From NCBI GenBank assembly GCA_950097015.1, contig CATNEN010000002.1, positions 8,184,001 through 8,248,000 of the forward strand: a stretch of DNA of 64,000 nt. The letters run 5' to 3'. Both the position numbers and the translations under genes were made by a program. Of this stretch, positions 1,838 through 60,427 are shown piece after piece. The notes under the pieces are model-generated. The model saw only the letters and a program-made list of their open reading frames with translations. It was not told the origin of the DNA and made no database searches. The DNA comes from Macrostomum hystrix. Taxonomy: Eukaryota > Animalia > Platyhelminthes. The number at the start of each line of letters is the position of its first letter. Position 1 is the first letter of the stretch.

Positions 1838-2300
1838 ATAGCGGGAGCGATAGCGGGAGCAATAGCGGCAGCGATAGTGGCAGCGATAGCGGCAGCGATA
1901 GCGGCAGCGATAGCGGCAGCGATAGCGGCAGCGATAGCGGCAGCGATAGCGGCAGCGATAGCGGCAGCGATAGCGGCAGCGATAGCGGCAGCGATAGCGG
2001 CAGCGATAGCGGCAGCGATAGCGGCAGCGATAGCGGCAGCGATAGCGGCAGCGATAGCGGCAGCGATAGCGGCAGCGATAGCGGCAGCGATAGCGGCAGC
2101 GATAGCGGCAGCGATAGCGGCAGCGATAGCGGCAGCGATAGCGGCAGCGATAGCGGCAGCGATAGCGGCAGCGATAGCGGCAGCGATAGCGGCAGCGATA
2201 GCGGCAGCGATAGCGGCAGCGATAGCGGCAGCGATAGCGGCAGCGATAGCGGCAGCGATAGCGGAGCGGATTACGGAGCGGATATCGGAGCGGATAGCGG
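1838..2300. repeat. 12-bp minisatellite (ATAGCGGCAGCG)n, about 35 near-perfect copies
   Basis: Direct reading; it explains the AAAI and RYRC ORFs. Confidence 0.97.
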
Positions 2301-2378
2301 AGCACTGCATAATACAGAGATGTTTCACATTTCCCTACAGAAGCGGAACCACTCCCCGGACACTCCTGATGCACACTC

Positions 2379-2409
2379 CTGAATTATGTTATTGGCGATA
2401 TACAAAAAT
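2379..2409 (+). repeat. 31-bp direct repeat, copy 1 (CTGAATTATGTTATTGGCGATATACAAAAAT)
   Basis: Identical to 5667-5697. Confidence 0.9.
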
Positions 2410-2553
2410 TGTTCATTTTTTAGACTGGGAAGTATGTGTAGAAGATGAGCAATGTAGCAGATGATCGATGCAATATATTTTGTCATGCTTCATTTTGCTT
2501 TTTCCTTATAAAGCATAAGCCTTTTCTTTTTTCAGAAATCAGAAAGCTCACAT

Positions 2554-5500
2554 ATGTTGTCACCTACAGATCGCAACAGCATCTTTGCGGCAGCTAGAAT
2601 TCTCAATGAAACGGAGGAATACGCAAACCTTTTGAATTTGAGTGCAGAATTCCGCGAACTCTATAAGTGTATTAGCGAAGCATCCATAAAGGCAGGAACC
2701 ATTGGGTTTAGCTTAGTTTTCGGTCCAAGTGGTACTGGTAAAACAACCCTGCATAGGTATGCTGCAGATGTTTTCAAGAAGGCTAGCTTCCCCACCTTTG
2801 TCCTGCCTTCTGATATCGCCAATGAACAAGCCGTTGTGACTGCTCTTGAAAATAATGGGTACAGTGAAGTTTCTGCTATTCAAGAGTTTGGAATCCAAGT
2901 TGGCGAGTTCATTATTCAGCAACTAAGTCAAAATCGTTACGCTGAGCTTCGATGTTCTAATGATTTATTTGTGGCATCCATGCTGGAACCGCGCAAACCG
3001 TTTAAGAGACTACCAGGATTCGTTCTGTTGCATGATGCCACAAAAGAGGACAATCCAAATCCTGAAAAAAAACGCTGGTCTCGGAACATCTCCCACACTG
3101 CTTGCGAATCCCTTTCATCAAGTGTGAATGAGAGCCCAAAAGCCAAGAAGATGAGACTTGCGTACACATCACCACCACACCGCTACTCTGGGTCACAACC
3201 GAGTGTGAAGAAGTCCCCGTTGCAGGATTATAATGACTGCAAGGAAGCTCCACCAATCTTCAAGTTTGAGGTTGGATCATCTGCCATCAGTTACGTTTCC
3301 ACTTTGTATGTCTGATTCGCACATGGCTGAAATGTACACTGACATTGACGACAACAAATACATCACTTTTATGACAAGCCTCATGAGGGGATTGTCTGGG
3401 ACTGGCACTACTGGAAGCGGTGCCATTGTGTGCTTCAGCAGTCGTCTTTCTCCACCCATGAAAGTGGACTATGAACGTGGAGAAGTCTTTGCTGCTACTG
3501 TAACTTCTTCAGCAAGACCTATTGTATACATGCGCCTAAACCCTGCCGTGTCGCCAGCAGAAACTGACTGCATTCATCGGTGAGTTTCCTTTTAATTAGC
3601 TATTGTGTTATTGAGCGTGTCAAGCCTTGTTATTTCTGATCTTATCAGCACCGATTAATCAGTTCAGTAGGCAGGAGTTCATACTCAGTTGGTTAGAATA
3701 TATGTGAGCACTATCATTATTATGTGACATTAGGGGGTTGACTGGCTGGGTCCGAAATTACCGCTAATGGGGGTGTATGTTATGTATTGACAATGTCTCT
3801 CATTAGGGTCTATTCGAATTCGCCGGGGAGAATGAGCAAATTTCTGAGGGAAAGTGGGGGCCAATACAAGACTGTCCCTGTGGGTTGAAAAATAGGGCTA
3901 AAAATACTGGTTTGGGAGAGTATGGCCGCCTAGCATTAACAGTGTTCTCTGTCAAAACAACTATGATCACGCTTTTCCTCTCACAGGTATGTGCATACCA
4001 AACTCGTCGAGACATTAGAATCAAGTGGATTCCGCATAAACTCCGGTTTCAACCACTCGATTGCACGACTGCTAGGGCTTGCAATTACCGGATTAGAGCA
4101 TTCTATGCTGCGTTTAAAAGATTTTATTATCCAGTTAGAGGCGTGTTACCCTCAAGACGGACAAACTGAGTCCGGCCAGTTTTCCGATTCTTTGGAAAGA
4201 AAAATAGTCGATTTCTGCATGTCTGGCAACTTGACGGAATTAGAGGCAATTCACCTTGAGACAGTGGTCCGCAATGTCCCCGAGGGTTGGGAAGATTCTT
4301 TCTGCGCCAAATTGCTTATCGCAGCCTTCTCTGATGTGCCAGTGTCACTGACCAAACATGCAACTCGGGATGCAGTGCTTCATTCCATTTTCCGTGTAAT
4401 TAGCCAGTCTCCAATGAATAATTCTTCTGATATTTGCGTCCGCGTGGACAGTCGAATTACCAAAGTAATATTGACAAAACTGCAGGAATCGATCAAATGC
4501 AAACTCACTCAGGACATTCTCGGTTACTGCTGTGCTGTTTTGTTGCAGGCCGAAATTCCGAGTCACACAGGCACTGCTGTTCCCGGGGAGGCAATTTTCT
4601 TCGGTACTCGATTTGAGCAAGCATTTTTCTGCAAAACTGTCCTGCTATTTTGTTGCACCCAAATTGCATTTGAGAAGCTTCCTCGCAATTGTTTTGGGCT
4701 GAGACAGCTGTTGCAACTCGGGTCAGATTCACCAACGAGCCAAAAAATGCAGGGGTGCGATAGGAACGAAGATGCTTTGCCCACGGGGCACAAAATCCCG
4801 TTAGTACGCTACTGCAAACGTGCTACCTTGATTAATCTGGAGGCCATAATCAAAGATTTCACCCAAGAGTTGACCAGGGAGGACCAGTCGGTTGTCAAAT
4901 TCCTTGTCGTGAACACGCCAAATGTGACATCAGTGGACGTGGTGCTGGCTTGCGCTACATGTACCAGAAGACCGGACGCGAATGTGGATAGGAAGATGAC
5001 GATTTGGCTGATCGAGTGTAAGTCGCTGTCTTTCATTATAAAATTGTAATTGTAATTGTAATTGTAATTGTAATTGTAATTGTAAAAATGGTATTTAAGT
5101 TGTCGTTGTATTTAGGATTTAGTTGTAAAGTTAAAAGTATTTCAGTCTAATAGATAGTGAGTAATGGACTGTGTTTTCTGTGAAACCGACTATTGGTCAC
5201 AAGTTTCCTTGGACCACTGTGATGTTTAAAGGACAGTTCTCAATTCCTTCACATATAATATGGAGAGGAATATTCACATTAGGTAATTTTTCACTAGCAA
5301 AACACTTAATAATTTCCAGGCAAGTCATCGCTGCTTGCTGGACAGGATTTCAAAATGGCAGACAAGGACAGCCTGCTTGCAAAAGGCCAGCTGACATTTG
5401 AGCGCATTAAGACCGCAGCATCATCTGAAAACTGCTCTCTGAAGCTGAGCTACTCTATTCAGCTACTGAACAGGTCAGTAAGCTTCCAGGCCGCAGATCG

Positions 5501-5558
5501 GGAGCAACCGCCCCGTGCTGCGAAAAAGATTTCGCCATGTAGTAGAGATCTCTTCTAA
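2554..5558 (+). CDS. Spliced P-loop NTPase + PD-(D/E)xK restriction-endonuclease-fold protein, 740 aa; exons 2554-3305, 3379-3579, 3987-5017, 5320-5558 (possible upstream exon 2341-2431)
   Basis: Walker A GPSGTGKTT and Walker-B-like FVLLHD. Introns 3306-3378, 3580-3986 and 5018-5319 all start GT and end AG, and they join four separate ORF-track ORFs in frame (2223 nt). Splicing across intron 3 (t|gtaagt...ttccag|gc) recreates the IECK motif after a VDVVL strand. The first intron could instead be a frameshift. Confidence 0.65.
5044..5083. repeat. (TTGTAA)n microsatellite in predicted intron 3
   Basis: About 6.5 perfect copies. Confidence 0.95.
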
Positions 5559-5666
5559 ATGCCGTTGCACGGACCTGCGCAATCAACTTCAGGAGGCATT
5601 TCGTGGCGGAGATCCTGGCGAAGGGGAACCTTGTGTTGATATAGTGCGTTAATATGCTTGACAGTG

Positions 5667-5697
5667 CTGAATTATGTTATTGGCGATATACAAAAAT
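5667..5697 (+). repeat. 31-bp direct repeat, copy 2
   Basis: Identical to 2379-2409; the pair brackets the NTPase-nuclease gene. Confidence 0.9.
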
Positions 5698-6511
5698 GGT
5701 ACATTTCAAAATGCGGATGGCAAATCGCAGAAGCGTTAACGGAAGTGATAGCGGAAGCTAATAATATGTTATTTTTAGCTGTGCGCAGTGCACTTACTTA
5801 TTCTGTTGTTACTTTTTACACTTTGCATTGCTGCATGAATGACTTTTTCTTTACAAATACTGCAATTCAGAAAGCCCCAATAAGAAATGTACCATTTTTT
5901 ATACTGCCAGTACATACTGCTCCATCTATTTTCTGCTAAATGCACTCGTACATGTCCTTTCTCACAACGCACCACACACAACGTTGCATGCGCACTCAGT
6001 GTCGGTGTCAGCATTATTATTTTAATAATCCTTTCTATACACTTTTTGTATCCAATTTCTTCAAGTCATGCAAACCTAAAATCTATTAATTTTTATTTCC
6101 TCATCTTGGTTGACCTGTAATAATAATACGGTAATAATTCAAGAGTAGGTTGGGTGGAGCGGATGAATTATTATCTCTAGAAGTCTCTGGTTTGACTGTG
6201 GCTGGTTGGGGAGGTTTGGCTATTGGAGAGAGATTGGTGAATGTGCCGAAAAAGCCTGCCTCCCCAGGACTATGAAATACTTTTCAGGACTTTTCAATTT
6301 TTGCTTTTGATTTCAATTTTTCAATTTTATCAGTCTTATTCATTTTTGCTTTATAGGCGAGAAGGGGTAGAATGAGGAGAGAATATTTATTTGCACCTCA
6401 ATGCACCAAAACACGGCCCACAAAATTGAAAACAATATTAAATCGAGCAGAAGACATGCAGCTTTATGCACTCGTGGTGCACAAGATTATGACTTTTGCG
6501 ACTTGCCATCA

Positions 6512-7365: not shown

Positions 7366-8074
7366 AAATGAGATGAGGGGTGGCTAGGTGGGCAGTTTTA
7401 GGTTAATTTTAAGTTTAAGTTAAATATCTTAACTTAACGCCTCGGCGGATTTTCTTCCGCGGGCATCACAGTCTTATCCAGTTTTGGCCATGTTTCATCA
7501 TCACTAAGTTTCTAAATAGCAAATGTGTCACTTTAGGCAGCTTTTTTGTATCTATTAGGCAATAGATATAACAATCACTGCTAACTAAATAGATATAACA
7601 CCCTTTAAAACTGTTTGCCTGTGAATAAATTTACTTAGCTATGAAATATTTAGGATGAAAAACATTATTACAGATATGTTTTTTGACTACTATATAAGTA
7701 GTGCAATTTGCGCATGCAAATGTCCCATCCGTTTTTAAGAAAAATCTAAAAAATTTTTTTTCAAATAACTCTTTTCACCTTTTGAAAGTCTAAATTAATA
7801 ATCCAGGCGAAAAAAGGTATAATTTACTGGTCACAGTAATTTTTATTAGTTTCAGAAACAAAACTTTGCGGTTCTAAAGGTCCAGGGTCTCTTAGGGGGC
7901 CAAAAAGGCTCCAGGAGTGGCCTATCTTTTTTCCTCTTGGAGATATCGTCTTGAAAACATCGAATTCAAAAAATCCCGCGCGAAAATTAATCTAGAGACA
8001 TTCTAGGAGCTAGAGAACTGGTCGAACTCGCATCGCTGGAAAGCGTCAAAACCTCCTCATTGTCGAGATAGGCC

Positions 8075-8362: not shown

Positions 8363-8737
8363 CTAGCAAGTTTAGCCCCCCTTCGGGGAGCAGAAATATT
8401 TTTAATTCTCGTCCAGTAAATGCTTTTTAGCAGCAGTAAAATTTTCAGCTTTTTTAAAGCTACAATTATTAACTATTATTATTAATTAAATAATTAATTA
8501 AGTTCTAATTTGTCCTTAATTATTATTAAGAACAACTATTATTCAGTGTATATTGGTACATGTATTATAATTTCCATTTTAATACATTACTAACAGCGGG
8601 CGGTTTGTTTTAGTGCTGAGTTTTAGATTGTGCAAATTGCACAAAAGCTAAATGTTTTGAATAATTTACCGCGTCATATACTAATGGAATGATCTTTAAC
8701 TATTTTTATTTGCAGTTGAATTGACTATTAATCGTTT

Positions 8738-9356
8738 TGTTGTAGGGCCCTCTTATCTTTTTGCTTTTCCTCTATTAATCTCTAATTACTTAAGGTTTAG
8801 TTTGTAAATTTTTGGTAGGATTATCTTAACTATGGGTTTATGTATTCATAAATGACTTCTAAGTATCAGCTTTTGAAAGGAAAGACCTCTTGTTGTCTGT
8901 TATATCTATAGGTAGCGATTTACGTGTGTCCGAGCGGCAAGACACTTAATTAATACTGGTCATAACGCACAAACTTTATTGATAAATTTGCTACAATACG
9001 TACTGATTTGAGTTTTCCAGTCCTAATCAGGTTACCAATGGACTAGAGTTGCCCAGTCAATTACACAATTTGAATAACTCCTGGCTTTTAGTTCTATTAC
9101 AGCTTGGCTTTATCTCAATAGGAAGGTATGAAATGAGTAAGACACTTTTAACGATAATATGTAAAACACTGTTTAACTCGCGAGTGAGCGCGGAACTCAG
9201 GTTGTCTTTCTCCTCAAATTCCCTCTATATTTATAGGATCACATTGGGGTGGCGTACCCCACTAAAACACGGAACCATTTAAACAAAAGTTATACGGTAA
9301 CATTATTTCGCGCCAATTTGACTTTAAAATGTTTTGATAATTATTACGCTGCCTCA
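8738..9356 (-). repeat. Gypsy 3' LTR (619 bp)
   Basis: Appears identical to 17109-17727; the same 77-aa ORF occurs in both at offset 8371. Confidence 0.97.
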
Positions 9357-9612: not shown

Positions 9613-11040
9613 TCAGATAAAAAGGCATTCGCTAGGAACTGGCATAACACGTGGCCAACCCACAATGCGGGCTAGCCAGCGAATTTCAATATTAAGAACA
9701 ATGTCATTAAATTGGTACTGATTTGACTCAATCGAATGTTTAGCGTATTGTACGGCCCGACGCCAAGCTGCAACGGCGTATTCGCCATTGAATTCGTCCA
9801 GTATACGGCGAACCACCGGCCGAACGTCCTCCCGCTGAGGGAATTTACGATCGAGACGAGCGTACGCCACGGACATGAGATACTGCTTAAGCAGTTGTAC
9901 GTGGTGCTTGTAATAATCAGCACGGCTCGGGGTCAGATTCCGTAATAGAGCCGGAAAGTCTTCTCCCAGGCGATTGTTCGCCGGCGATTGCTGTTGCTGC
10001 TGCTGTCGACGCTGCTGCTGCCGGTGCTGCTGCTGCTGCCGATGCTGTTGCTGCCGATGCTGTTGCTTGAGCTGCAGGCTCATTAGAGGCTTTGGCTCTG
10101 GCAGCGGCTGACTCGGCTGATGTACTGCAGAGTGTCGATGCAACCGTGGCTGCCTATGCCTGGGCCCTGGAGCCGTCGGCGACTGTGATGGTGATGGCAG
10201 CTCCAATTCTTCTGGTGTATCGCCCTCCGAATCCTGCTGCGACGATGACGGCTGCGACAGCGGTAGCTGCGGCTGCTGCGACGATGATGGCTGCGACAGC
10301 GGTAACTGCGGCTGCTGCGACGATGATGGCTGAGACAGCGATGGCTGCGGCTGCTGCTGCGATGACGGCTGCGACAGCGGTAGCTGCGGCTGCTGCGACG
10401 ATGACGGCTGCGACAGCGATGGCTGTGGCTGCTGCTGCGGTTGCGGCTGTGAGGGCTGCCGCGGCGGCTTCGGCTGGATCCGGGCAAATCTCTTCTTGCC
10501 CTCTTCGACAGCCGGCTGCGGGACTGGTGCTGGTTTCGGCGCTATAGGCCTACAGTACGTACGATTTGGCCATTGATCCTGAGCAGAAGCTCCAGGGATG
10601 GTGATCAGTATTGCGGCTTTAGAGCTCATCGGTTGACGTCTGGCCATTGATTCAGCAATCGGCACCTCCGTCTCCGCCTGGTCCTTCAGGATTCTGCAGC
10701 GTTTGACGGGGTCTACCGGGACGGGCAACCGTGAATTCGGTGCGGACCTCTTGTGAGAACCTCCGGCTTGCGGAACATTACGTCCTGGTGATTTTGACAC
10801 TAGCCGACCACTTACATTGGCTAGCCGAGGAGCAGTTCGCGTCCGGAGTGGGGCTTCATTTTCTTGATCATCCATGATCTCCACAATCTCACTCTCGGCT
10901 GGGACTTCTGCCTGAGTGATAATGACATTTTTCTCTGATGGATTAATCTCAGCATTGGAGCTGAATGGGGATAGGTCTATTGTTACTGCTTCTAGCAGTC
11001 TATCAAATTCGTCGGGGTCCAATATATCTTGTTCGGCCAT
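9613..11040 (-). CDS. Gypsy third ORF, 475 aa from first ATG, Q/P/S-rich, not env-like
   Basis: Open frame between pol and the 3' LTR. No signal peptide or TM segment visible. Basic motifs (KRSAP, VKRCR), (SQPSSSQQPQLPL)-type repeats, poly-Q and an approximately 110-aa non-repetitive C-terminus. Confidence 0.8.
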   Translation of the reverse strand: MAEQDILDPDEFDRLLEAVTIDLSPFSSNAEINPSEKNVIITQAEVPAESEIVEIMDDQENEAPLRTRTAPRLANVSGRLVSKSPGRNVPQAGGSHKRSAPNSRLPVPVDPVKRCRILKDQAETEVPIAESMARRQPMSSKAAILITIPGASAQDQWPNRTYCRPIAPKPAPVPQPAVEEGKKRFARIQPKPPRQPSQPQPQQQPQPSLSQPSSSQQPQLPLSQPSSQQQPQPSLSQPSSSQQPQLPLSQPSSSQQPQLPLSQPSSSQQDSEGDTPEELELPSPSQSPTAPGPRHRQPRLHRHSAVHQPSQPLPEPKPLMSLQLKQQHRQQQHRQQQQHRQQQRRQQQQQQSPANNRLGEDFPALLRNLTPSRADYYKHHVQLLKQYLMSVAYARLDRKFPQREDVRPVVRRILDEFNGEYAVAAWRRAVQYAKHSIESNQYQFNDIVLNIEIRWLARIVGWPRVMPVPSECLFI

Positions 11041-11125
11041 GACGGCAATTGAAATGTAAAACACACAATTAGTGGGGAGGTTCAAGACGAACGGACAGTT
11101 GACATTTGCCCGCCTGCTGTTCTCG

Positions 11126-11272
11126 TTTATATAGGCGACAAAACTAGGGGTTGTCGACTCCCAATTGGTTGACTGGAGTTTTCTTCAAATTTTACTGGCT
11201 CCTTGGAAGACCCTTAATTCTTGAATTCTATTGGCTCGCTTACTATCCCTTGGTTCTCGGTTTCTATTGGCT
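11126..11272 (-). promoter_or_regulatory. Putative internal Pol II promoter for Gypsy ORF3 (TATA + CCAAT boxes)
   Basis: On the minus strand: TATATAAA at 11126-11133, AGCCAATAG twice (near 11230 and 11266) and a third CCAAT near 11164, about 85 bp upstream of the ORF3 ATG. Confidence 0.55.
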
Positions 11273-11350: not shown

Positions 11351-14300
11351 TTAAATCTGTATAGTTCCCAAAAGATTGAATACAGTGATAAGCCTCTGTA
11401 AATAGCCTTGATATCTAGCAGGGGGTCTGACTTGCCTTCTAGTATTGTATGGACGCTCAGATGGCCTCTGTTCATTGTTCTCCTCTTCGCTGTTTTCGTC
11501 TGAGGTGGATGCCTCCTCACTATTGATTGTGGTCTCATTCTCTTCTTCGCTTGCGCCTTCCATGGGCTCTGATTCACTCATTCCAATTTCTACTTCTGCT
11601 CCAATATCGAGTTGCTCACCTTGAATTATACTCTGCTCATGATTATTATTGCAATGCCAATTTATTCTTTCCTCTTCAGATGATGACTCTTCATCGAATG
11701 GTTGTTCCTTATTTCGGGACTGGCTTCCCTTAATTCTTGCTTCTGTCCTAGTCTTTTTCTTGGTGGTCTGCTGGCTTCCCTTATTTTCTATTTCTGCTTT
11801 CTTGTTATTGACAACAGGCTGGCTTCCCTTAACTAATTCCTCTAGTTTTTTTACTGAATTGGGCACGGGTGTCAAATTATCGCGGTGTACTAGCATCAAA
11901 TTTCCTACTAGGATTCCTTCTTCCTCTTTCTGTACCTTGAATACTACTTCAGAAATACATTCTATCACACGATAAGCAGATCTCTGCTTGCGATGGAATT
12001 TATGTGATTCTTCCGTATCTAGCTGTGGATTATTGATTAGAGCTAAACTTCCTAGCAAGATCTCTTTCGGCGGCTTGTTGATTCTGGCCGCTGCTTGTCT
12101 TTGTTCCACGACGGACTCCAATTTCTTCTTCACTATTTTCTGGGCAGTTTCTAATCTTTCTGCGTGTTCAGCGACATAAGATGGATAGCTAGAAAAGGAC
12201 TTAGCTTCTTTGATCTGGGTATCTAATGGCAATACGGCTTCCCTACCGAATAACAGGTAATGAGGGGTGAAGCCTGTTGTTTGATTTACGCTTGTGCGAA
12301 CTGCAACCAATGCAGCTGGAATCATTAAATCCCAATTGTTGTGATCCTTTTCAATTAAACAGGTCACAATGGATTTTATTTGCTTGTTGAACCTCTCTAC
12401 TAAGCCGTTACTTTGGGCATGATATGGGGTGGTGAACGTATGTTTCACATTGTACAAGCTGCAAAACGCCTTAAATTGTCTACTTGCAAACGTTTTCCCA
12501 TTATCAGTGTGAATCCAGTGACATTGACCAAATTCTGTGAATATTCTCTCCTGTAGAATCTTAATGACAGTGTCTGCCTTTTGATTTCTCACGGGGAACG
12601 CAAATGGGTACTTTGTGGTACTATCGATGACCGTAAGTACATAGCGGTGCCCTCTCCGACTTTCCTTTGATATTGGGCCGATCAAATCGCAGTGGAGACG
12701 ATAGAAGGGTTCGCATATAGGGAACGATTGAATTGGGGCCTGGACTCGGTGTCCTCGCTTACTTTCAAGACAATGGATACATTCTGCAATGTACTTTTCG
12801 ATAACTGTGACCAGACCGGGTCTCCAGAATCTCTGCTTGACTTTCTGCACAGTCTTATCTCGTCCTAGATGTCCAGACAATGGGCTCTCATGCAAATCAG
12901 TAAATATTACTTGATCGAGGGCCTTGGGTAAAACAATCTTCCAGTCCTCTTCTTCTTGAATTATCAGCATGCCATTCTCGATCGACATTTTCTCATAGGC
13001 TTTGCTCATCTGCCTGATCTCACTACTGGAATGATCTGTTATCTGGGGATCACTACACTTTTTCTTCCAATCAATGAGGGTACTAATCGTAGGATCTTCC
13101 TGCTGAGCTTTAATTAATTGTTCGTGCTTCAGGGGCATGGGTAGATAATCTGTTAATAACTTTTCACACTTGCCATTGATTTCTTGCAGTGTTTCATTTC
13201 GCTGTGGGGGATTGAATTCTTTGGCGGCCGGATTCAATAGCATTACGCTGACATCCTGAGGTCCTTCCTGAATTCTTTCCTTCTCTAATCCTGAAACTGT
13301 AGACGGGATCCTAATATTGGGATCAATTGTCATTGTCTCTCCTTCGAATGGCAAAACAGTCTGTGGCTTGGTCAAGCTAAGGGAGCTATCATTGGCCATT
13401 TCCTGTTCGGGTTTCTCATTCATACTGCTGTTCTTCAATGACTGCTCTATGACTGGGATACCTTCGGGGACTTCGGCTGGTCTTCGGGATAGGCTGTCGG
13501 CGTTTTGATTTTTCGCACCGCTTCTGTGTTCAATATCGAACTTGAATTCGTTTAGGCGCTCAATCCACCTGCCTAGTATACCTTGTGCTTCAGTCTGCCT
13601 AAGTAACCAGATAATAGCTTGATGATCGGTTCTGGCTAGAAACTTCTTGCCTAATAGATAAAATCTAAAATGTTTCATTGCATCGACTAGTGCTAATAAT
13701 TCCTTCCTAGTGATGGGGTAACGCTTTTCCGATTCTTTCATTGCGCGGCTGAAGTAAGCTAACGGCCGTTCTACACCATCGGACTGAATTTGACTTAAGA
13801 CTGCGCCGATTCTATCATCACTAGCGTCTGTATCCAACACCATTTTCACACTTTCATCATCGATAAATTCGGGATAGGCTAGCACTTCTGTGGACATCAT
13901 ACGGGTTTTAAGTGATTCAAAAGCCTGATCATGGATCTCACTCCATTTCTCCTTAAAGTTCTGAACTCCCTTTCGAGTCAGTTGAAATAATGGGTGGGCT
14001 GCTTCCGCATAATTTTTAATAAAGCGACTATAATAATTGCACAATCCTAAAAAACTTCGTAACTCTTTGGCATCTTTTGGCTTTGGCCATGTCTTGATTG
14101 CTTCGATTTTATCTTCATCGGTGCGAATGCCTTCTATGCCTATAATATGGCCTAGGTATTTTAATTCCTTGTGAAATAAATTGCATTTCTTCGGTCTAAG
14201 TTTCAAACCTGCAGTGATTAACCGTTGAAATACTTCCTTAAGATGGGCCAAATGGTCATTAAAGTTCTTTGAATAAGTAACAATGTCATCAATATACGAC

Positions 14301-16126
14301 ATTGCGAATTTATGTTGGATTCCTAAAAGTACAAGGTTCATTAGTCTTTGGAACGTTCCGGGAGCATTTGATAAGCCTTGGGCCATGACCTCATATTGAA
14401 ATTGGCCTCTTGTCAGGGTGGAAAAAGCTGTCATATGCTTATGCTCTTCTTTTATTGGCACTTGCCAATAACCGGAATTTAGATCTAGACTACTAAAATA
14501 CTGACTTCCTGTAAGATAAGAGAATGTCTGATGAATATTAGGTAATGGGTAGGGTACATAATCGACTTTAGAATTCAATACTCGGAAATCACTAACGATC
14601 CTGATAGAACCATCTTTCTTCGGAACAATCACTAATGGAGTACTATAAGTAGAATAACATGGTCTGATTAGGTTCTTAGCTAACATATCATCTAATTGTA
14701 AGTCGACTTGTTTTTGTAAATGAGGTGGAATTCGTCTGGTCGGAATTCTTACAGGTGTTTCGTCATTCAAAGATATCTCATGGGTAATGAGGTGGGTCAA
14801 TCCCATGTCTAGATCATTCTGTGAAAAGGCATTTCGATGCTCTTTAATCAATTCGATGACCGACTGTTTCTGCTCACTGGAGAGTTCTGACCCGATTCTG
14901 ATCTCCTCAATCCAGGCATCTTCCACAGTTTGGGTTTGGTTGACTTTTCCGGCTGACTCAGGATCGGCTTGACTGACTGATTTAAAATAGGCTAAATCAC
15001 TGGCTTTCACCGGTTTTGCCAATCCTACTAAAGTGGACTTGGTCAGTTTCACGTCTACTGGATGATGATTCACAATTTCCACTACGGCCGTGCCATCTCT
15101 CATAGTGACTAAAGTTGGCATCATTTCCAACATCATTTCTTGAGTCTTCACTCCTTCTCCAATGGTTTCTACTGTCATAGGAGTTCCGTGGTTGCACTCA
15201 GCATTCTTAGCTAGTCTAACTGGGACTCGCAATGCACTATTAGCTGGGATCACGGTTTTCTCCTGGGTGTACACTCGACAGACTTTTACTGGCAAATGGG
15301 TGAATTGCATTGGGATTCGTGATCCTTCTTTCAGAATGAGCATTCCTTGGGCTAAGCTTATGCTATCACAGCATTCAAGGAAAAACTCCATGCCAAGGAT
15401 ATTGTCACACTCATGACTGCATAGCAAAAAGTCAATTTCGGCTTCTATATCACCAAATTTCACAGTGAGACAACTTTCTCCTTCTAGCTGAACTCGGGTT
15501 CCGTCAAAGGTGGAAATTCGCTTATTCGTACTTTTAATTTGGTCGGACTTTACTAATTTGGTCCAGACTGATTTACTTAGGAAACTATTTCTAGCTCCAG
15601 TATCCAAGATAAACTTAACATCTTGCTTTTTAATGGTTCCTATAACGACTGCTTCATAACCTTCTGGCTTTACTAACTCTACTTTAGCATTAGAAGCAAA
15701 AATTTTAGATTGTCTCTCACGTGTCCTTTGACTCTTGATTAGCTTCTTCCTGGCGGACTTCTGTGCTGGCGTGTCGTCTGCTGATTCTCCGGAATCTGAG
15801 TCTGTCTCATCGCTGGGTGCTGACACTGTGGATGCTGACATAACTGTTGGTACACTGGATGCTGACATAACTGATGCTGACGCGAATGGTGCTGATACGA
15901 CTGGTGCTGACGCGAATGGTGCTGACACAACTGGTGCTGACGCAAATGGTGCTGGTAAATAACGAGCGGGTGCTGAAGCGTTCCGTGCATTACGCCATTT
16001 AGATTGGGAATAATAAATTTGAGTTTTGACAACTGGGTGTTGTCCATTCAAGGAGGCCTGGTATTCGAACAAGGTTCTTCTGGAGGGGCGTGGCCTCTGC
16101 TTCCGTCCCTCGAATCTCAGTTTCCC
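11351..16126 (-). CDS. pol: Gypsy Pol polyprotein (protease, RT, RNase H, integrase), probably via -1 frameshift
   Basis: LDTGA protease; YIDD RT; DTDASD RNase H; HHCC zinc finger plus D-D-E integrase (LHCDLIGP, IHTDNG, NGLVERFN). The frame stays open back to the slippery site. Confidence 0.97.
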   Translation of the reverse strand, partial: GKLRFEGRKQRPRPSRRTLFEYQASLNGQHPVVKTQIYYSQSKWRNARNASAPARYLPAPFASAPVVSAPFASAPVVSAPFASASVMSASSVPTVMSASTVSAPSDETDSDSGESADDTPAQKSARKKLIKSQRTRERQSKIFASNAKVELVKPEGYEAVVIGTIKKQDVKFILDTGARNSFLSKSVWTKLVKSDQIKSTNKRISTFDGTRVQLEGESCLTVKFGDIEAEIDFLLCSHECDNILGMEFFLECCDSISLAQGMLILKEGSRIPMQFTHLPVKVCRVYTQEKTVIPANSALRVPVRLAKNAECNHGTPMTVETIGEGVKTQEMMLEMMPTLVTMRDGTAVVEIVNHHPVDVKLTKSTLVGLAKPVKASDLAYFKSVSQADPESAGKVNQTQTVEDAWIEEIRIGSELSSEQKQSVIELIKEHRNAFSQNDLDMGLTHLITHEISLNDETPVRIPTRRIPPHLQKQVDLQLDDMLAKNLIRPCYSTYSTPLVIVPKKDGSIRIVSDFRVLNSKVDYVPYPLPNIHQTFSYLTGSQYFSSLDLNSGYWQVPIKEEHKHMTAFSTLTRGQFQYEVMAQGLSNAPGTFQRLMNLVLLGIQHKFAMSYIDDIVTYSKNFNDHLAHLKEVFQRLITAGLKLRPKKCNLFHKELKYLGHIIGIEGIRTDEDKIEAIKTWPKPKDAKELRSFLGLCNYYSRFIKNYAEAAHPLFQLTRKGVQNFKEKWSEIHDQAFESLKTRMMSTEVLAYPEFIDDESVKMVLDTDASDDRIGAVLSQIQSDGVERPLAYFSRAMKESEKRYPITRKELLALVDAMKHFRFYLLGKKFLARTDHQAIIWLLRQTEAQGILGRWIERLNEFKFDIEHRSGAKNQNADSLSRRPAEVPEGIPVIEQSLKNSSMNEKPEQEMANDSSLSLTKPQTVLPFEGETMTIDPNIRIPSTVSGLEKERIQEGPQDVSVMLLNPAAKEFNPPQRNETLQEINGKCEKLLTDYLPMPLKHEQLIKAQQEDPTISTLIDWKKKCSDPQITDHSSSEIRQMSKAYEKMSIENGMLIIQEEEDWKIVLPKALDQVIFTDLHESPLSGHLGRDKTVQKVKQRFWRPGLVTVIEKYIAECIHCLESKRGHRVQAPIQSFPICEPFYRLHCDLIGPISKESRRGHRYVLTVIDSTTKYPFAFPVRNQKADTVIKILQERIFTEFGQCHWIHTDNGKTFASRQFKAFCSLYNVKHTFTTPYHAQSNGLVERFNKQIKSIVTCLIEKDHNNWDLMIPAALVAVRTSVNQTTGFTPHYLLFGREAVLPLDTQIKEAKSFSSYPSYVAEHAERLETAQKIVKKKLESVVEQRQAAARINKPPKEILLGSLALINNPQLDTEESHKFHRKQRSAYRVIECISEVVFKVQKEEEGILVGNLMLVHRDNLTPVPNSVKKLEELVKGSQPVVNNKKAEIENKGSQQTTKKKTRTEARIKGSQSRNKEQPFDEESSSEEERINWHCNNNHEQSIIQGEQLDIGAEVEIGMSESEPMEGASEEENETTINSEEASTSDENSEEENNEQRPSERPYNTRRQVRPPARYQGYLQRLITVFNLLGTIQI
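16053..16126 (-). promoter_or_regulatory. -1 ribosomal frameshift signal: G GGA AAC heptamer plus predicted H-type pseudoknot
   Basis: Heptamer at 16120-16126 abuts the gag TGA. Stem 1 is GAGGG/CCCTC; stem 2 is loop GAGGCC paired with downstream GGCCTC. Confidence 0.7.
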
Positions 16127-17049
16127 TGCTGATTGAACTGTGGTCTGTATGGGAATCGATTTTGACCGTGTTGGGGCCTGGCAGAGGAATACCTTCCTTG
16201 GTAGTTCTGCTGCGGTCTCTGACCATAGGGGGCCTGTGGTCTATACCGATTTGGTTGGTAGGGCTGCTGAAAGCGCGCTTGCTGCTGCATAAGCGGCTGG
16301 GGCGGCTGATACTGCCTTTGATTTTCTGCTCTCCTTTTCTCCTCAATCAAATTCTGAATTAGTTGCTTCTGCTTACTAATCTCCTGTTTCTGCTGCTGGA
16401 TCACTTCCTCTAACTTGTCCTGCTGACTCTCGCTTTCTTCTCCCTTCACCATTCTGACTCCACTCTTATGGGATAGGTGCCATGCGGCTTCAATCCTACG
16501 CAACATCCGTCTTGCTTCTTGCAGGGTCGCGGGCTGTGCAAATATCAACTTCTCTCTTGTCTCAGATGGGATCCTAGTTCCTTTTAGAAACTGTTCCACA
16601 ACTTCCTCCTCTCTTTGCTCCGCGTTCATGTTAGGGAATGCCCTTGTTGCTAGCTCAATGAGGGCGTCGGCAAACATGTCTGTTGGCTCATTACGTCCTT
16701 GCATTCTTCCGCGAAACTCCTCTCTAAATTCGGATGCGCTTCCTATTCTTCCAAATCGCTCTATCAGTCTCTCCCTAAACTCCTCATAGGTTAGATCGTC
16801 GGGTAGATTTAGTCGTTGGACTGCAGCGAAAGCTGTTGCTAGATCAAGGTTGGCTAAGAGCTCATTCTTTCTGTGCTCGTCCTGATTTAAACCTTCAGTA
16901 TCGCACCTTTGGTCAAATGCAGTTAGCCAAATTCTAATGTCTTGACTTGGAGTGTACTTTTGGATCTTAATATGCCTCATTGGCCCTAGTTCAAGTCTAT
17001 TTCTTAGCTCTTCGGCTAACAATCCGATAGCGTCATTTATTCCTGCCAT
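16117..17049 (-). CDS. gag: Gypsy Gag, 310 aa, no CCHC knuckle
   Basis: First ORF after the PBS; capsid-like motifs (WLTAFD, EFRGRMQG, EQFLKG), a coiled coil and a Q/P/R/Y-rich tail. Confidence 0.9.
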   Translation of the reverse strand: MAGINDAIGLLAEELRNRLELGPMRHIKIQKYTPSQDIRIWLTAFDQRCDTEGLNQDEHRKNELLANLDLATAFAAVQRLNLPDDLTYEEFRERLIERFGRIGSASEFREEFRGRMQGRNEPTDMFADALIELATRAFPNMNAEQREEEVVEQFLKGTRIPSETREKLIFAQPATLQEARRMLRRIEAAWHLSHKSGVRMVKGEESESQQDKLEEVIQQQKQEISKQKQLIQNLIEEKRRAENQRQYQPPQPLMQQQARFQQPYQPNRYRPQAPYGQRPQQNYQGRYSSARPQHGQNRFPYRPQFNQQGN

Positions 17050-17087
17050 TACGGTCGGTCTGTTTGTGTGTTTGACTGAATTCTAAT

Positions 17088-17105: not shown

Positions 17106-17108
17106 AGT

Positions 17109-17727
17109 TGTTGTAGGGCCCTCTTATCTTTTTGCTTTTCCTCTATTAATCTCTAATTACTTAAGGTTTAGTTTGTAAATTTTTGGTAGGATTATCTTAA
17201 CTATGGGTTTATGTATTCATAAATGACTTCTAAGTATCAGCTTTTGAAAGGAAAGACCTCTTGTTGTCTGTTATATCTATAGGTAGCGATTTACGTGTGT
17301 CCGAGCGGCAAGACACTTAATTAATACTGGTCATAACGCACAAACTTTATTGATAAATTTGCTACAATACGTACTGATTTGAGTTTTCCAGTCCTAATCA
17401 GGTTACCAATGGACTAGAGTTGCCCAGTCAATTACACAATTTGAATAACTCCTGGCTTTTAGTTCTATTACAGCTTGGCTTTATCTCAATAGGAAGGTAT
17501 GAAATGAGTAAGACACTTTTAACGATAATATGTAAAACACTGTTTAACTCGCGAGTGAGCGCGGAACTCAGGTTGTCTTTCTCCTCAAATTCCCTCTATA
17601 TTTATAGGATCACATTGGGGTGGCGTACCCCACTAAAACACGGAACCATTTAAACAAAAGTTATACGGTAACATTATTTCGCGCCAATTTGACTTTAAAA
17701 TGTTTTGATAATTATTACGCTGCCTCA
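17109..17727 (-). repeat. Gypsy 5' LTR (619 bp)
   Basis: Copy of 8738-9356. Confidence 0.97.
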
Positions 17728-18437
17728 GTTTGATTTATTGTGGTATTTAGTATTTTTGTGCGGTTAATATTAGCAGTGGCAGCTTCAATGTTGCATATTG
17801 AAGTAGTGAACTATTTTGAACATCGTTATACCCTAATTAATATATTGATTATTCTGAGAGTAGTATTGTCTTTTATGCGCACGTACTGTATGTACTGTAT
17901 ATATCATGTTAATTAAAAAATGTCTGTATGTATGCATTTTTTAATACAGACAAATTAATAATAGCTTTGATTATAACTTTTAGAAGTATTATTTTACATG
18001 TACCACTTAAAATTGGTTAATTAATTGCATGTAATTTTTTGTATAATTTATATATCAGAGTGTAATTCTTCACATATTAGAACTAGAACTTTAATGCACA
18101 AATCATTTACATTAGCTTTTATTAATTATATGCATCCAAGAAAATTTTACTCAAATAAATGATATAATATTACTAAAAAATGTTTTCTGAAGCTTAAGGA
18201 AATGTTTATTAAAGATGGTTAGGATACTTGTACATTACTTGTACTTGTACATTATGTGAAGTCTGTTTAAGAAAATGCTACATAAGTACAAAAAATAAGT
18301 GAAAAAATCACTTTTTGTAATTTTCATTCGAAAACTCATGCATACACGTAGTCTTTAATTTAAGTCAACCAGCATTACCAATCAATGCCATCATTTATAG
18401 GTTAATAATATAATATTGCTAACGCATTAAACTCAAT

Positions 18438-19827
18438 TTGCTGATGGAGCTATTAACTCAGAGAGGTCAAACAAAGCTGGAGCACAACGGCCATTACTAT
18501 GTTAAAGAAAGAGATCTGCAGGAGCCTGGGCAGTCATCGTGGACTTGCGATTTCCGGAAGCGATTACATTGTCGTGGTCGGATTCGTGTTACTAATGGTG
18601 AGCCCATTCAGATCATAACGGAACACAACCATGCTCCACAAATCATTCGAAGGGAAACTTTGGAGGCTGTGCAGAGAGTCAGGGACAGAGCAACTGGTAC
18701 TGCAGAATCAACGAGGCAGGTCGTTGCTGCTGCCACTGCTAACATGTCAAATGAATCTGCCGCTCTGTTACCATCTCAAAGGAGTCTGGATCGAACTGTT
18801 CAGCGCCAGAGAAACGCGCACAACAATATACAGCCACAGCCGGCTAATTTAATTGAATTAACATTCCTGCCAAGGAACACCCTGCTTGATAATGGCGAGG
18901 TGTTCCTGATTATAGATACAGGACCCGGAAACGATAGAATTGTCGCCTTTGCAACACAGGCAAACCTACAACTACTTCAACGAGCAGCAGAGCTTTTCGT
19001 TGATGGAACTTTTAAAACGGCGCCTGAACCTTTTACTCAGGTGTACTCAATTCACGGAAAGGTTCTAGGAAAAGTGCTTCCACTTGTTTTTGCTTGATTG
19101 CCAAATAAAAACCGTCGAACATATGACCGCCTATTTGTGGAACTAAAGAGGCTGCTGCCGAACTTGAACCCCCCTAGAATAATGCTGGATTTTGAAGCTG
19201 CTGCCATTGGAGCTTTAAGGGGAGCAGCTCAGTGGCTGTTTCTTTCATGCTTGCCAGTCCGTTTGGCGTAAAGTTCAGAGCTCAGGACTGGCACGATTAT
19301 ACGAGCAGGATACTAACTTCGCCTTGTCAGTTCGCTGCATACCTGCTATCGCACTCGTTAGGGTGAATGATGTCGAAAGAGCTTTCATAGAGCTATGTGG
19401 CAATCCGAACTTTCCTCAGCAAGCTTTAGCAATTGCCGACTATTGGGAAGACAACTATATCGGTCGACCTGGGTTTGCCGGTGGAGCACGTCGAGCGCCA
19501 CTCTTCCCACACGCGTTCTGGAATGTTCATGAAAGAACGATTGGGGATCTGGAAAGGACTAACAATCATGTGGAGGGTTGGCACAGGGCCTTCCAAACGA
19601 TGATTGTAGGTCATTCACCAAATATTTTTAAGTTTCTCGAGGTTCTGAAACAAGAACAATCACGCAACAACAACGCTGTTCAATAATTAGTAGCTGGTCA
19701 AGCACCTCCAGCTCGCCGAAGAGCCTATGTCGATTTAGATCGCCGAATTCACCAAATACTTGATGATTACGACAACAGAACCTTACCCGAGATTCTACGA
19801 GGCATTGCGTACAATTTCAATTTTTAA
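18438..19827 (+). pseudogene. MULE transposase with N-terminal FLYWCH domain, inactivated
   Basis: WTCDFRKRLHCRGRI...HNH (FLYWCH); LFVDGTFK, IMLDFE, GCFFH...QSVWRK and TNNHVEGWH motifs. In-frame stops at 19095-19097 and 19684-19686, and a frameshift near 19225. Confidence 0.92.
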
Positions 19828-24564: not shown

Positions 24565-25898
24565 GAATGTGCTGATCAGTGTCGGAGTCTTCACCCTGCT
24601 TGTGGGCTTCTGCGGCTGCTGTGGTGCCATCAAGGAGTCCAACTGCCTGCTTTACACCTTGAGTGGCTGGATGGCTGTGTTCGTGAGATTATTTGGATTT
24701 ATATCGAAGCACTAGCCGATGCGGATAAGCTCTGGTGCTGGTGAACAAAAATGTTTGTGTCTTCAGCCAATAGCATTCCGCCAAGTCATCCTGTCAACAG
24801 TAGTATAAAATGGCGTTAAAAGTGTTTCGTTATAACTGACAGCCAATAGCATCCAGCCACGTCATCAAGTGAATGAATATATATTTAGAAACGGTATAGC
24901 GATCCTGCGATCCTCATTCCAGTACGCCGGTCTGATCTGTGTGGTCCTGACCATCGAGATCGCGGCCGCCATTCTGGCCGGCGTCTTCCAGAACCGTGTC
25001 CGCAGCGAGGCTGAGATCGCCCTTTTCGACCTGGTGAATAACTACTTCGTCTCGATCCCAACCTACGAGGCCACACGGACCCAAACCACTGGCAATGCTG
25101 CAGCCAAGGCTGCTGTGACTTACCTGGTTAATCTGGTGCAAATCAGCTTTGACTGCTGCGGCGCCATCAACGTTAACGATATCAGCAACAGCACCAGCTG
25201 GCGGGGATCGAACCTCATACTCAATGGAAGGACCCTCGTGAATGCCATGACGTGCTGCTCGCTGAAGACTTCGAGAGCGAAGACTGGAATCAAGTTGCCG
25301 ACCTTCAACTGGACCATCTTTGACGAATACCTGGACAAGCCCGATTGTCCATTCACAGCTGCTAGCCCCAGCAGTGGCATTCACTCGAAGGTAGGTGCAC
25401 AACTTAACAGCGACATTGGTGCATTGAAGTTTGGCACTCATTGTCTAGCTCTACATGAAATACTGCAATGCTGCAATTGTAATCCCTCAGACCTGCTACC
25501 AGGGCTTAATGGACTACATCACCAAGTACTCCTTGCCCCTCATCGGTATCTGCGTTGCAATCGGCCTGATTGAGGTGAGAAATTGAGCAGATCCTACCAG
25601 CTAGCAGGTCCCAGCCACATGTGACATTTCTTAGCTTAACAAAATCACATCCCTTCCATAGCACTCGCAACTCCCTGAACCTCGCAACTCCCTGAACCTC
25701 GCAACTCCCTGAACCTCGCAACTCCCTGAACCTCGCAACTCCCTGAACCTCGCAACTCCCTGAACCTCGCACCTTCCTGAACCTCGCACCTTCCTGAAAC
25801 TCGCACCTTCCTCAACCTTGCACCCGCAGTTACTGGGCATTGTGCTGGCCTGTTGCCTGGTCAGCGCGCTGAAGAACGACAATGCCTACAAGAACTGA
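24565..25898 (+). CDS. Tetraspanin, partial: exons 24565-24658, 24923-25390, 25491-25574, 25830-25898
   Basis: GFCGCCGAIKES-CLL (TM2), TM3 with EIAA, EC2 CCG motif plus TCC and CY, TM4, short tail. The donor at 24659 reads TT instead of GT, and no TM1 exon was found. Confidence 0.85.
24767..24864 (+). promoter_or_regulatory. Tandem ERSE-like elements plus UPRE-like core in the tetraspanin intron
   Basis: CCAAT-N9-CCACG exact at 24843-24861; CCAAT-N9-CCAAG at 24767-24785; CCACGTCA at 24857-24864. Confidence 0.3.
25664..25810. repeat. 17-bp intronic minisatellite (CTCCCTGAACCTCGCAA)n
   Basis: Direct reading. Confidence 0.9.
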
Positions 25899-26885: not shown

Positions 26886-28085
26886 AAGGGTAACCTGGGC
26901 TGATGGCGGCATTAGTTTACTTTTTCGTTCCAAACATCTCAGCGTGAACTTCGATAATACCTGTAAAAATCATGCTTTGGCTAAGAAAAAACAATCGAAA
27001 GCAATATACTCGAGCAACTGCTTAAAGTATAAAGAAACGATAAAATAACTGCTTTAAATCACGCTTACAAAAGATCGTCACAGTGTGCGTGAGATAGTCG
27101 AGCCAAGGACAAGAATATGCAACATAAAATAACAAAAGGATGTCATAAACATCTGCTCACGAATATTCTCGGCATTTCGTGCACTTTCATGTAAGTGACG
27201 ATGCTGTCTAAAAATAACTGGCCCAGCAGCAGACCCTCAAAGCCCAGGTAAAAACGTCATTCGAGTCTTTAATAAGGCACCTCCAGAAATGTCACACTTG
27301 CGTCAGAAGTGGAAAATTCCTTGGCTTGCCCTGGAGAATTGAGCAGGATGGCTTTTGTGAGAACAGCAGACCCCAGCCAGAGCACAAGCTGGCAGAGTGC
27401 TCAGGACTGACGCTTGCCAGTTGGAAACGACAAGGGTGGTTGGGATGCTAGGTGGCTGGGGTGCAGAGGTTGCTGTCACTGCGCATTGTCTACCTTCACT
27501 CCGTGTCATCTCACAATGCTCACCTACTTTCGGAGAAACAGTAAAGACTCATTCAGACAATGGCTATTTGAACTGTAGTGGGTTTCCAGTGAGAATAAAT
27601 GCTATTGAGCACTGCTTAGGAGTTTGAGCAGTCACAATAGAAGGGCCTGAGCCATTGCCTTTGCAGGCAGGCTCAGCTATGCGACTCAGAAGATCGCCGC
27701 AGGCCCCGCTCTGAAAATGACAATGGGCACAATAGGCACAATGGATATCAGTCTCAGCCAAAAACTCAAAGCCAGCAGTCACTGTCCAGCACTCTCAAAA
27801 TCTTGGCCTCATAAACTGTATTTTTGTTTTTTTCGGTTTGCATTTTCTGGTACGAAAGACGGATACTTCGTCAGGTCTATTTTTGCTCGCAATGACCGCT
27901 GTTGTACTTGATTAAAGTGAAGGATTAGTGCGAATGGCGTCATTCTCACCTGGTTGCCAAGGAGACAGGATGCTGTGGCACACAGCTCAGCGCGAGCATT
28001 TAAAGAGAGCCTCGAGAGGTGCTGTGAGATTTCTTAAGCCAGCTGCTCAACTCACCTCACTGACTGCTCCACAGCTCGAATCTGC

Positions 28086-31000
28086 ATGGCCAGGCCTCCG
28101 CTGCTGCTGCTGCTTCTCATCCTGACTGCCGTCAGCTTTGGTAAGTGTTGCACCTGTGCTCACTGCCCTCACATGCACCTGTGCTCACTGCCCTCACATG
28201 CACCTGTGCTCACTGCCCTCACATGCACCTGTGCTCACTGCCCTCACATGCACCTGTGCTCACTGCCCTCACATGCACCTGTGCTCACTGCCCTCACATG
28301 CACCTGTGCTCACTGTCCTCACATGCACCTGTGCTCACTGCCCTCACATGCTCTGCTGATTGCAGACAGCTGTCAGGCAATCAACTGTTTTATTCGGAGC
28401 GGGCCATCAACAACAGACAATGGGACGACTCAGTCCTGTGGGTCAGCCACAGGGTGCTACTCAGTCACAACCAATGGGGTAAGATTAAATTGTCTGCTGA
28501 TTTGTTTTCTGTTTTCCCTTGAAGTTACCTTTTCAAAGCGCCCGCCATCAATAGGTGCTAAATTTTCTATTCATTTACAGCATTGAAGGCAAAGTCTTTA
28601 AAAGTGTCCTTGAATTATTGCGAGTCTCATATTTAACGCAGAGGAAGTTAAAAAAATAAGAAAAAATATTTCATTGATGCATGGCTACCTAAGCCTCAGG
28701 GCAGCTGTCCTTAAGAATAGATATCTCTGAAATACTCGTACTTTCTTTGGGCTTCCGTGGTATCCCACTTGCGTCACCAAGCAGTTTATTTTGCAGTGTG
28801 AAACGCAAAATAAACCATTTTTCTAAAATTATTTTTTTGAAATTTGAAGGGGCAGTGCAATACCTGTAGAACAGATAAAATGTAGACCACGTTTTCAACT
28901 TCTATTTGGCACCTGCTGTAAAATATTTTCTCATAGGAATTCTCGGTTCCACATTTCACAATATTTCTCAAGCTAACTAATGTTTTCCTGGTCAAAAAGA
29001 GAAAAGAGTGTCTCAACTCAGGCTTGCAGCTTTCTTGCTCATATTTTTCGGCTGCAGAAATCATTAAAATGATAATAAAAATAGTTATAATAGAAATAGC
29101 CAAATGAGTGCATGACTCATCATTCCAGCAAAGATTTGCAGGCTGCACCAGCAATGGCCAGTGCCTCAGTTCAGGCGAGGACTGCTACGTGTGCAGCACG
29201 GACTACTGCAACAGCATGACCCCCTCCTCCATCAGCTGCTTCTACCGCTCAGGATCTCACAGCAGCACCGACAATGGCATTGTGGTCGCCTGCCACTCCG
29301 GGATCTCAGCCTGTTACTCCTACATGGGATCGGTGAGTTGAGCTGAGAAGATAAACTAAATTAGCTCCACTTGAAAAGGTGTGCGCGTTTCTGCAGTGCA
29401 GTTCACTTTTTAAGAACTTTTTAAAACTTTTCTTTGAATGTAACGTGTTTAAATTCCATTTTTCTATATGTCAATATGAAGAAAGTTTGTTTTCATTGGG
29501 AGCAAAGTCTTTGTTTGTCAGCTGATTTGATTGCTAATGCTGCTGTGTACTTCAAGCGGGTGTTGATTTTGGGCTGACAGTCAATGACTTGCTGAACTCG
29601 CTCCTCGGGACCTTACTGAAGGATTGATTGAACAGCTGGGAGCGGCTGACGAAGCGGAGGTGGTTGGTGAGGAATGAGCCCAGCGCTCAAGGTGAAGAAT
29701 GGGATGTGGGAATTTCGGTATTTAGAACGCTTTTGAAACCAAGACTACAATCAGGACTGCAGTCTGAGTTTTATCTTTTTACAAGACTAGTTGTCTCTGG
29801 CATTGGCAGAACTGGCCTTCAAAATAGAACTTTCTTGACAGTAGATCGACCCTTGCCTTTTGTAGGGATCACCTGGCGGCTATGCCGGCTGTGGCAACAT
29901 CAGCACCAATGACAATGTTCAGCTGTTCACCTGCAACTCCAGCCTGTGCAACTCCCGAACACCGTCAGCCATCAGCTGCTATGCGGCATTAAGATCTTCT
30001 GGTTCCACCTACAACGGATCTGCGGTGCCCTGCCCTACTGGATTTAGGACTTGCCATATCTATGACTACTACTTCACTATTTCGGTAATTCAATCACCGG
30101 GGTGATTAAAATAATCAACATGACTTCTATCATTTACAATTAGAAAAAAGTAAGCAAGACACCTCATAAGCCTGGAAGAGGCAAGAAGAATGAGCATAGC
30201 AGAGGCAAGAAGAATGAGCATGGAAGAGGCAAGAAGAATGAGCATGGCAGAGGCAAGAAGAATGAGCATGGCAGAGGCAAGAAGAATGAGCATGGAAGAG
30301 GCAAGAAGATTGAGCATGGCAGAGGCAAGAAGAATGAGCATGGCAGAGGCAAGAAGAATGAGCATGGCAGAGGCAAGAAGAATGAGCATGGCAGGGGCAA
30401 GAAGAATGAGCATGGCAGAGGCAAGAAGAATGAGCATGGCAGAGGCAAGAAGAATGAGCATGGCTTCGAGTTAAGAAGAATGAGCATGGCAGAGGCAAGA
30501 AGAATGAGCATAGCAGAGGCAAGAAGAATGAGCATGGCAGAGGCAAGAAGAATGAGCATGGCAGAGGCAAGAAGAATGAGCATGGCAGAGGCAAGAAGAA
30601 TGAGCATGGCAAAGGCAAGAAGAATGAGCATAGCAGAGGCAAGAAGAATGAGCATGGCAGAGGCAAGAAGAATGAGCATGGCAGAGGCAAGAAGAATGAG
30701 CATGGCAGAGGCAAGAAGAATGAGCATGGCAGAGGCAAGAAGAATGAGCATGGCAAAGGCAAGAAGAATGAGCATAGCAGAGGCAAGAAGAATGAGCATG
30801 GCAGAGGCAAGAAGAATGAGCATGGCAGAGGCAAGAAGAATGAGCATGGCAGAGGCAAGAAGAATGAGCATGGCAGAGGCAAGAAGAATGAGCATGGCAA
30901 AGGCAAGAAGAATGAGCATAGCAGAGGCAAGAAGAATGAGCATGGCAGAGGCAAGAAGAATGAGCATGGCAGAGGCAAGAAGAATGAGCATGGCAGAGGC

Positions 31001-44040: not shown

Positions 44041-44071
44041 GATCAGCGATCGCTTTTGCTGCCATTCTCAG

Positions 44072-60394: not shown

Positions 60395-60427
<33 letters not shown>

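Follow-up and report, generated by a model that had tools for sequence, protein, structure and literature searches.

What is encoded between positions 2515 and 5659 of a 64,000-nucleotide stretch of the Macrostomum hystrix genome (contig CATNEN010000002.1, positions 8,184,001 to 8,248,000; the whole stretch is called the window below), and does it belong to a mobile element or to the flatworm itself? Fusions of a nucleoside triphosphatase (NTPase) with a restriction-endonuclease (REase) fold are well known from prokaryotes, oomycetes, fungi and trypanosomes. An initial annotation, made from the letters of the window, had proposed a four-exon, 740-aa gene of this kind, with an N-terminal P-loop NTPase and a C-terminal PD-(D/E)xK nuclease resembling the Crinkler/RHS core. 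The explanation preferred here, with a probability of about 0.5, is that Macrostomum expresses and trans-splices this gene, whose product combines a P-loop with a predicted C-terminal PD-(D/E)xK domain and is likely kept by the host as a nuclear, NTP-switched nuclease, and that the window carries a damaged copy of it. All features are compiled in Table 1.

A search of sequencing runs yielded four runs carrying the gene, all from one study, and their assembled contigs were compared with positions 2290 to 6480 of the window and again, at 80% likeness, with 2300 to 5800. One contig of 2668 to 2690 nt was found in each of the four runs, comprising the segments 2535-3578, 3986-5017, 5320-5538 and 5548-5659. 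The contigs appear to derive from RNA, since introns are removed and a spliced leader is present; the gene is expressed, spliced and trans-spliced. The 21 to 22 unaligned letters upstream of 2535 (4/4 runs) are the 3' end of the 35-nt spliced leader of Macrostomum lignano given in PMC8629364. This leader is described as highly conserved among other Macrostomum species (PMC10468722) and so fixes the genus, and the terminal ATG of a flatworm leader is stated to be able to act as start codon (PMC12582326). Here, the leader-supplied ATG is in frame with the gene, six codons upstream of position 2554, at which the initial annotation had begun its first exon. No second expressed copy was detected at 80% identity in any of the four runs, and no second copy of the gene is located within the window. 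A C-terminal piece of a DEG/ENaC channel (1171-1419, Pfam ASC, E=9e-7), also on the plus strand, precedes the leader acceptor by 1115 nt, or 530 without tandem repeats, and falls inside the 1-kb operon threshold used in PMC8629364.

The exon structure proposed earlier was partly confirmed. The pieces 2554-3305, 3379-3579, 3987-5017 and 5320-5558 do join into 740 stop-free codons, and the introns 3580-3986 and 5018-5319 were spliced out in all four runs. The proposed first intron, 3306-3378, was spliced out in none of them; instead, the contigs pass through it and carry two extra bases behind 3281 compared to the window. The gene is thus a real spliced gene with two confirmed introns rather than a four-exon one, and the window copy is frameshifted. 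That the window copy yields an intact 740-aa protein through splicing of 3306-3378 is very improbable, even though this join has a GTATGT donor and an open frame and contigs omit rare forms, so that a minor splice form might be missing from them: no run skips the segment, which is coding in the frame of the transcript, and its acceptor (TGACAAG) is weak, without an adjacent pyrimidine tract. As six GT and three AG lie nearby, a frame-rescuing join is easy to find, and the case illustrates that an intron model can hide a frameshift. The restoration of I-E-C-K by the last splice, considered unlikely by chance in the initial annotation, does not test that splice, because its donor GTAAG itself encodes C-K; the unspliced open reading frame (ORF) 3967-5049 reads IECK too.

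The gene has few relatives. A phmmer search with exon 2 (3988-5016) against 1.84 billion representative proteins returned three matches: P0001 (75% identity, a "hypothetical protein" on a JGI contig), P0002 (31% identity, an unnamed protein on a Logan contig) and P0003, a repetitive protein that matched by composition and was rejected. With only two real homologues among so many sequences, the possibility raised in the initial annotation that this is a conserved animal gene of the ordinary kind does not apply. Both homologues, available as protein sequences only, terminate a few residues past I-E-C-K, as expected if gene callers had read through into an intron shared at the same position. A word-index protein search with exon 2 (602-2000 aa) gave no relative among 3608 sequences, and the search with profile A1 recovered only its own two members among 6832. 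Scans of metagenome, viral and genome contigs with this profile, of limited reach, gave no relative; it found no match among PDB sequences, and no significant match was found in plasmids, the latter search also being of limited reach. Full-length, prokaryotic or viral relatives were not found in these searches of limited reach, and the gene belongs to a family named in no library searched. No account of the gene was found in the literature, with most subscription journals outside the search; the listed articles on Crinkler-RHS proteins, CR-NTPases and CR-REases (CR, Crinkler-RHS-type) include none on flatworms.

All motifs named in the initial annotation (GPSGTGKTT, FVLLHD, AIVCFSS and P-N-x-x-x-x-D...IECK) are present. 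In the N-terminal half, the Walker A motif is clear, with GxxxxGK[ST] following a hydrophobic strand as in P-loop NTPases. The best Pfam matches of this half were AAA_16 (E=0.0013) and ATPase_2 (E=0.0032), all sub-threshold. In NCBIfam, PADLOC and PHROGs, weak sub-threshold P-loop matches were confined to Walker A, and among PDB sequences the N-terminus matched the P-loop only. FVLLHD and AIVCFSSR are presumably similar to two strands of STAND- and RHS-type NTPases, Walker B and sensor-1, respectively. In the first of two basic clusters the transcript encodes R where the window has W. No N-terminal relatives were found in a word-index protein search (133-424 aa, 0/299). Fifteen bacterial loci matched by an N-terminal piece at 24-27% identity were dismissed as chance matches; the one examined is a Peptidase S46.

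The predicted nuclease motifs lie within exon 2 at about 4603-4617 (G-x-x-F-E), 4930-4938 (S-x-D) and 5011-5016 (I-E). The gene and its two homologues agree fully (3/3) in G-x-R-F-E, P-x-x-x-S-x-D and L-I-E-C-K. The K of ExK is confirmed by the spliced transcript; since the C-K of the homologues may stem from a splice donor, only E, D and E were counted as conserved. These three are retained in 3/3 sequences, compared to 10 of 45 other D, E and K residues in the 31% homologue, which gives approximately 0.011 for all three, and the peaks of identity (10/20) coincide with these motifs. Of 77 known nuclease ORFs, 34 contain a core motif pattern, compared to 8 of 309 ORFs in the background; the pattern was composed after the sequence had been seen, and the 77 include three ORFs that were probably mis-picked. 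In a three-sequence model of 200 residues without the last exon, a helix at GxxFE is followed by three strands in helix-strand-strand-strand order. Judged by motif, the PD-(D/E)xK catalytic residues E...D...(D/E)xK are present, and a nuclease fold in the C-terminus is quite probable.

Fold and profile comparisons brought no clear support for a nuclease. The three-sequence model, in which the last exon is absent, has low confidence (pLDDT, the predicted local distance difference test score, only 52.5) and gave no clear match in the PDB or viral libraries; the lists of fold matches contained no nuclease, which still leaves room for one. With hhalign, the C-terminus reached at most 1.4% against four bacterial groups (13/15 PDDEXK_9 loci, 30/30 DUF4143, 4/5 DUF234 and 27/30 Mrr), even though its best alignment falls on IECK in three of the four. 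A single-sequence fold (pLDDT 37.6) was not used. These fold and profile comparisons, together with the occurrence of the motif in background ORFs, would suit a lineage-specific P-loop protein with a dead nuclease, or none at all, at its C-terminal end, the D...ExK having in the latter case arisen by chance; such a protein might act as an NTP-dependent scaffold or sensor. This alternative is unlikely: the three exonic acidic motif residues are unchanged at 31% identity, the strand order of the model fits, and PMC5289972 describes P-loop proteins with a C-terminal nuclease as a common architecture.

The window copy differs from the transcripts in more than the two missing bases. Near the 3' end it is approximately 80 nt shorter, nine nucleotides standing where the transcript has 89 different letters, and the C-terminus therefore also deviates from the one proposed earlier. 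These nine nucleotides start with GT and finish with AG and may be remnants of two introns flanking a lost exon. The reading frame of the transcript holds at both 5538 and 5548, and the encoded protein could comprise 830 aa and end at the TAA at 5650-5652, provided the 89 unread letters carry no stop. After 5659 window and transcript diverge, and the 3' continuation of the transcript was not found anywhere in the window. Eighteen substitutions separate the two; the count that follows uses the 15 coding ones that lie no further than 5538, omitting two outron sites and the one at 5604. Ten are synonymous and five non-synonymous, over 525 and 1767 sites, respectively (ratio of non-synonymous to synonymous changes, dN/dS, 0.15; binomial p=3.7e-4). 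This excess of synonymous differences means that the gene has experienced purifying selection. At the non-synonymous site 4650 both homologues agree with the transcript and not with the window, while site 4525 is not polarisable. The window carries either an allele or duplicate that was damaged recently, or a sequence that is partly mis-assembled. A copy that is not decaying, with the frameshift and losses due to faulty assembly or to variation among lines or species, is rather unlikely. M. lignano underwent a recent genome duplication, which complicates its assemblies (PMC10468722), and no DNA run was among those listed as carrying the gene; on the other hand, three lesions of differing kinds occur along with 15 substitutions, the two-base loss lies outside any homopolymer, and the homologues side with the transcript at 4650.

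With regard to mobility, neither terminal inverted repeats nor a short target duplication were found around the gene. A 46-nt direct repeat flanks it, present in two copies only within the window; copy 2 starts where window and transcript part and has a different 5' flank in the RNA runs. The pair would fit a small repeat or a deletion better than the end of an element. Copy 2 is overlapped by an imperfect inverted repeat (5673-5707 and 5884-5916), which may be a small non-autonomous element. A selfish element, whether a nuclease toxin supplied by a parent in the manner of Medea or an intron-carrying NTPase-REase element that mobilises itself, would account for the flanking repeat, the very patchy presence in databases and the coexistence of intact and damaged copies, and the Medea1 gene of Tribolium shares the architecture (PMC11342252). 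This explanation is improbable, given the single expressed copy, the lack of terminal repeats, the position of repeat copy 2 at a rearrangement point and the absence of matches to Medea-type DUF1703 domains (none in Pfam; hhalign 0.2-0.3%). The new class of mobile element envisaged initially is accordingly not borne out; among the three origins then considered, a domesticated copy fits best.

The closest described architecture is that of the CR cores, in which an NTPase, a helix-turn-helix and an REase follow one another (PMC5289972, PMC11342252, PMC6131194). By motif, the domain order of this eukaryotic gene is the same (P-loop, helical region, predicted REase), and its basic clusters could likewise be nuclear localisation signals. 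In contrast to the CR proteins described there, it has no N-terminal ubiquitin-like (Ubl)/LFLAK or other header, shows a single expressed copy in place of an expansion, belongs to a free-living animal and is trans-spliced. The LxLFLAK header of Crinkler effectors is absent from the 62 residues preceding Walker A, the 5' end being set by the leader, and the Pfam search matched no Crinkler or RHS family. What remains of the initial assignment is that an animal expresses this intron-bearing gene and that its product has a P-loop and, plausibly, a PD-(D/E)xK motif at the C-terminus; membership in Crinkler/RHS is not supported. By analogy in motif order, without a family match, the protein may function like a CR core.

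The initial annotation had left open whether animal homologues are described. At the level of architecture they are: Tribolium Medea1 is reported as CR-NTPase8 plus CR-REase7 (PMC11342252), and the Medea1-associated gene as a DUF1703 gene of bacterial origin inside a composite Tc1 element (PMC6387759, PMC3144190). Medea1/DUF1703 (PF09820 and PF08011) has in common with the Macrostomum gene that an NTPase is combined with a PD-(D/E)xK domain, predicted in the latter, within the genome of an animal (PMC11342252, PMC6387759). The two could not be matched by sequence or profile, hhalign against 13 bacterial members included. Moreover, CR-REase7 is described with H three residues past E, where the Macrostomum gene has E-x-K, and the Macrostomum gene has introns and no bacterial relative was found for it. 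Prokaryotic ATPases (AAA_14, ATPase_2 and AAA_16 type) with DUF4143 or DUF234 have the identical domain order and supply the weak best N-terminal Pfam matches (E about 1e-3), but the likeness is confined to Walker A (hhalign 28% there and at most 1.4% at the nuclease), and the protein is about twice their length. AACRNL, a Crinkler-like gene of free-living animals with a degenerate header (PMC12957317), is of the ADP-ribosyltransferase type and amplified along with adjacent transposons, unlike the predicted NTPase-nuclease.

Table 1. Features of the NTPase-nuclease candidate gene and its surroundings, in positions of the window.
Feature	Positions	Strand	Basis
46-nt direct repeat, copy 1, in outron	2373-2418	+	91% to 5661-5706
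Trans-splice acceptor, pyrimidine tract + TTCAG; leader joined here	2515-2535	+	unaligned letters before 2535 match the spliced leader
Coding exon 1, P-loop NTPase; comprises exons 1 and 2 and "intron 1" of the initial annotation; frameshifted in window copy	2536-3579	+	contig unbroken over 2535-3578, 4/4 runs
Walker A, GPSGTGKTT	2722-2748	+	sequence; weak P-loop matches
Walker-B-like strand, GFVLLHDA, no E following D	3016-3039	+	sequence; assignment putative
Two basic clusters (KKRW/RSR, PKAKKMR) within low-complexity insert; predicted nuclear localisation signals	3058-3165	+	sequence; function putative
Frameshift, window two bases short of transcripts; frame stops at 3313-3315	3281-3282	+	contigs, 4/4 runs
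Sensor-1-like strand, AIVCFSSR	3422-3445	+	sequence; putative, by STAND/CR motifs
Intron A, GT-AG, 407 nt	3580-3986	+	absent from contigs, 4/4 runs
Exon 2, helical part followed by predicted nuclease core	3987-5017	+	contigs, homologue alignment and model
Intron B, GT-AG, 302 nt, interrupts E-C-K motif	5018-5319	+	absent from contigs, 4/4 runs
Exon 3, K of ExK, then predicted helix and strands	5320-5538	+	contigs; secondary structure judged by eye
9 nt (GT..AG) in place of 89 transcript letters; coding sequence missing from window copy	5539-5547	+	contigs
Last transcribed segment present in window; frame open until TAA 5650-5652	5548-5659	+	contigs and frame
46-nt direct repeat, copy 2, starts where window and transcript part	5661-5706	+	repeat and contig comparison

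Further features lie elsewhere in the window. A Ty3/gypsy-type element (11351-17082, minus strand) has open gag-like and pol frames and an additional Q/P-rich ORF of 523 aa (9613-11184) without Pfam match; its 620-nt repeats (8737-9356 and 17108-17727) are 100% identical, hence the insertion is likely recent. A FLYWCH domain and, behind it, a fragmented transposase-like frame (18423-19686, plus strand) presumably belong to a MULE-like element, and a reverse transcriptase with a zinc-finger-like frame upstream (41130-43111, plus strand) to one that we take to be DIRS-like. Other coding sequences are a tetraspanin exon (24836-25573) and exons of a T-box gene (58824-61805), both on the plus strand, and repeated blocks (28038-46471) encoding short cysteine-rich, secreted-type proteins with glycosylphosphatidylinositol (GPI)-like tails, apparently a tandem gene family. 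An identical 27-nt AGGTTA-type motif occurs beside two different tandem arrays (1814-1840 and 7400-7426) and possibly marks the ends of one repeat family.

If the preferred explanation applies, the middle region would be a helical or winged-helix linker, and the NTPase would restrain the nuclease until exchange or oligomerisation is set off by a ligand or by nucleic acid. Such control by the NTPase has been proposed for CR-type cores (PMC5289972). The protein would act in the nucleus and might be aimed at foreign or selfish DNA or, as part of a defensive cell death, at the DNA of the cell itself. Its family would go back to an NTPase-REase module of mobile or microbial origin, with introns and leader acceptor acquired long ago.

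A wider reading is tentative and rather doubtful: the gene might represent STAND-like NTPase-nucleases of a family not yet described in animals, one old enough for an intron to be shared at 31% identity. Flatworms would then possess an immune or toxin-antidote system that senses and cuts in bacterial style. The weight of the case rests on the nuclease call, which is made at the level of motifs. If that call holds, the gene is a variant of a known architecture without a named relative. The animal case found in print, as described in the sources cited above, is the bacterial-derived Medea1 gene; a host-style version with a spliced leader, introns and purifying selection would add a domesticated animal family to those known for this architecture, and in an animal amenable to laboratory work.
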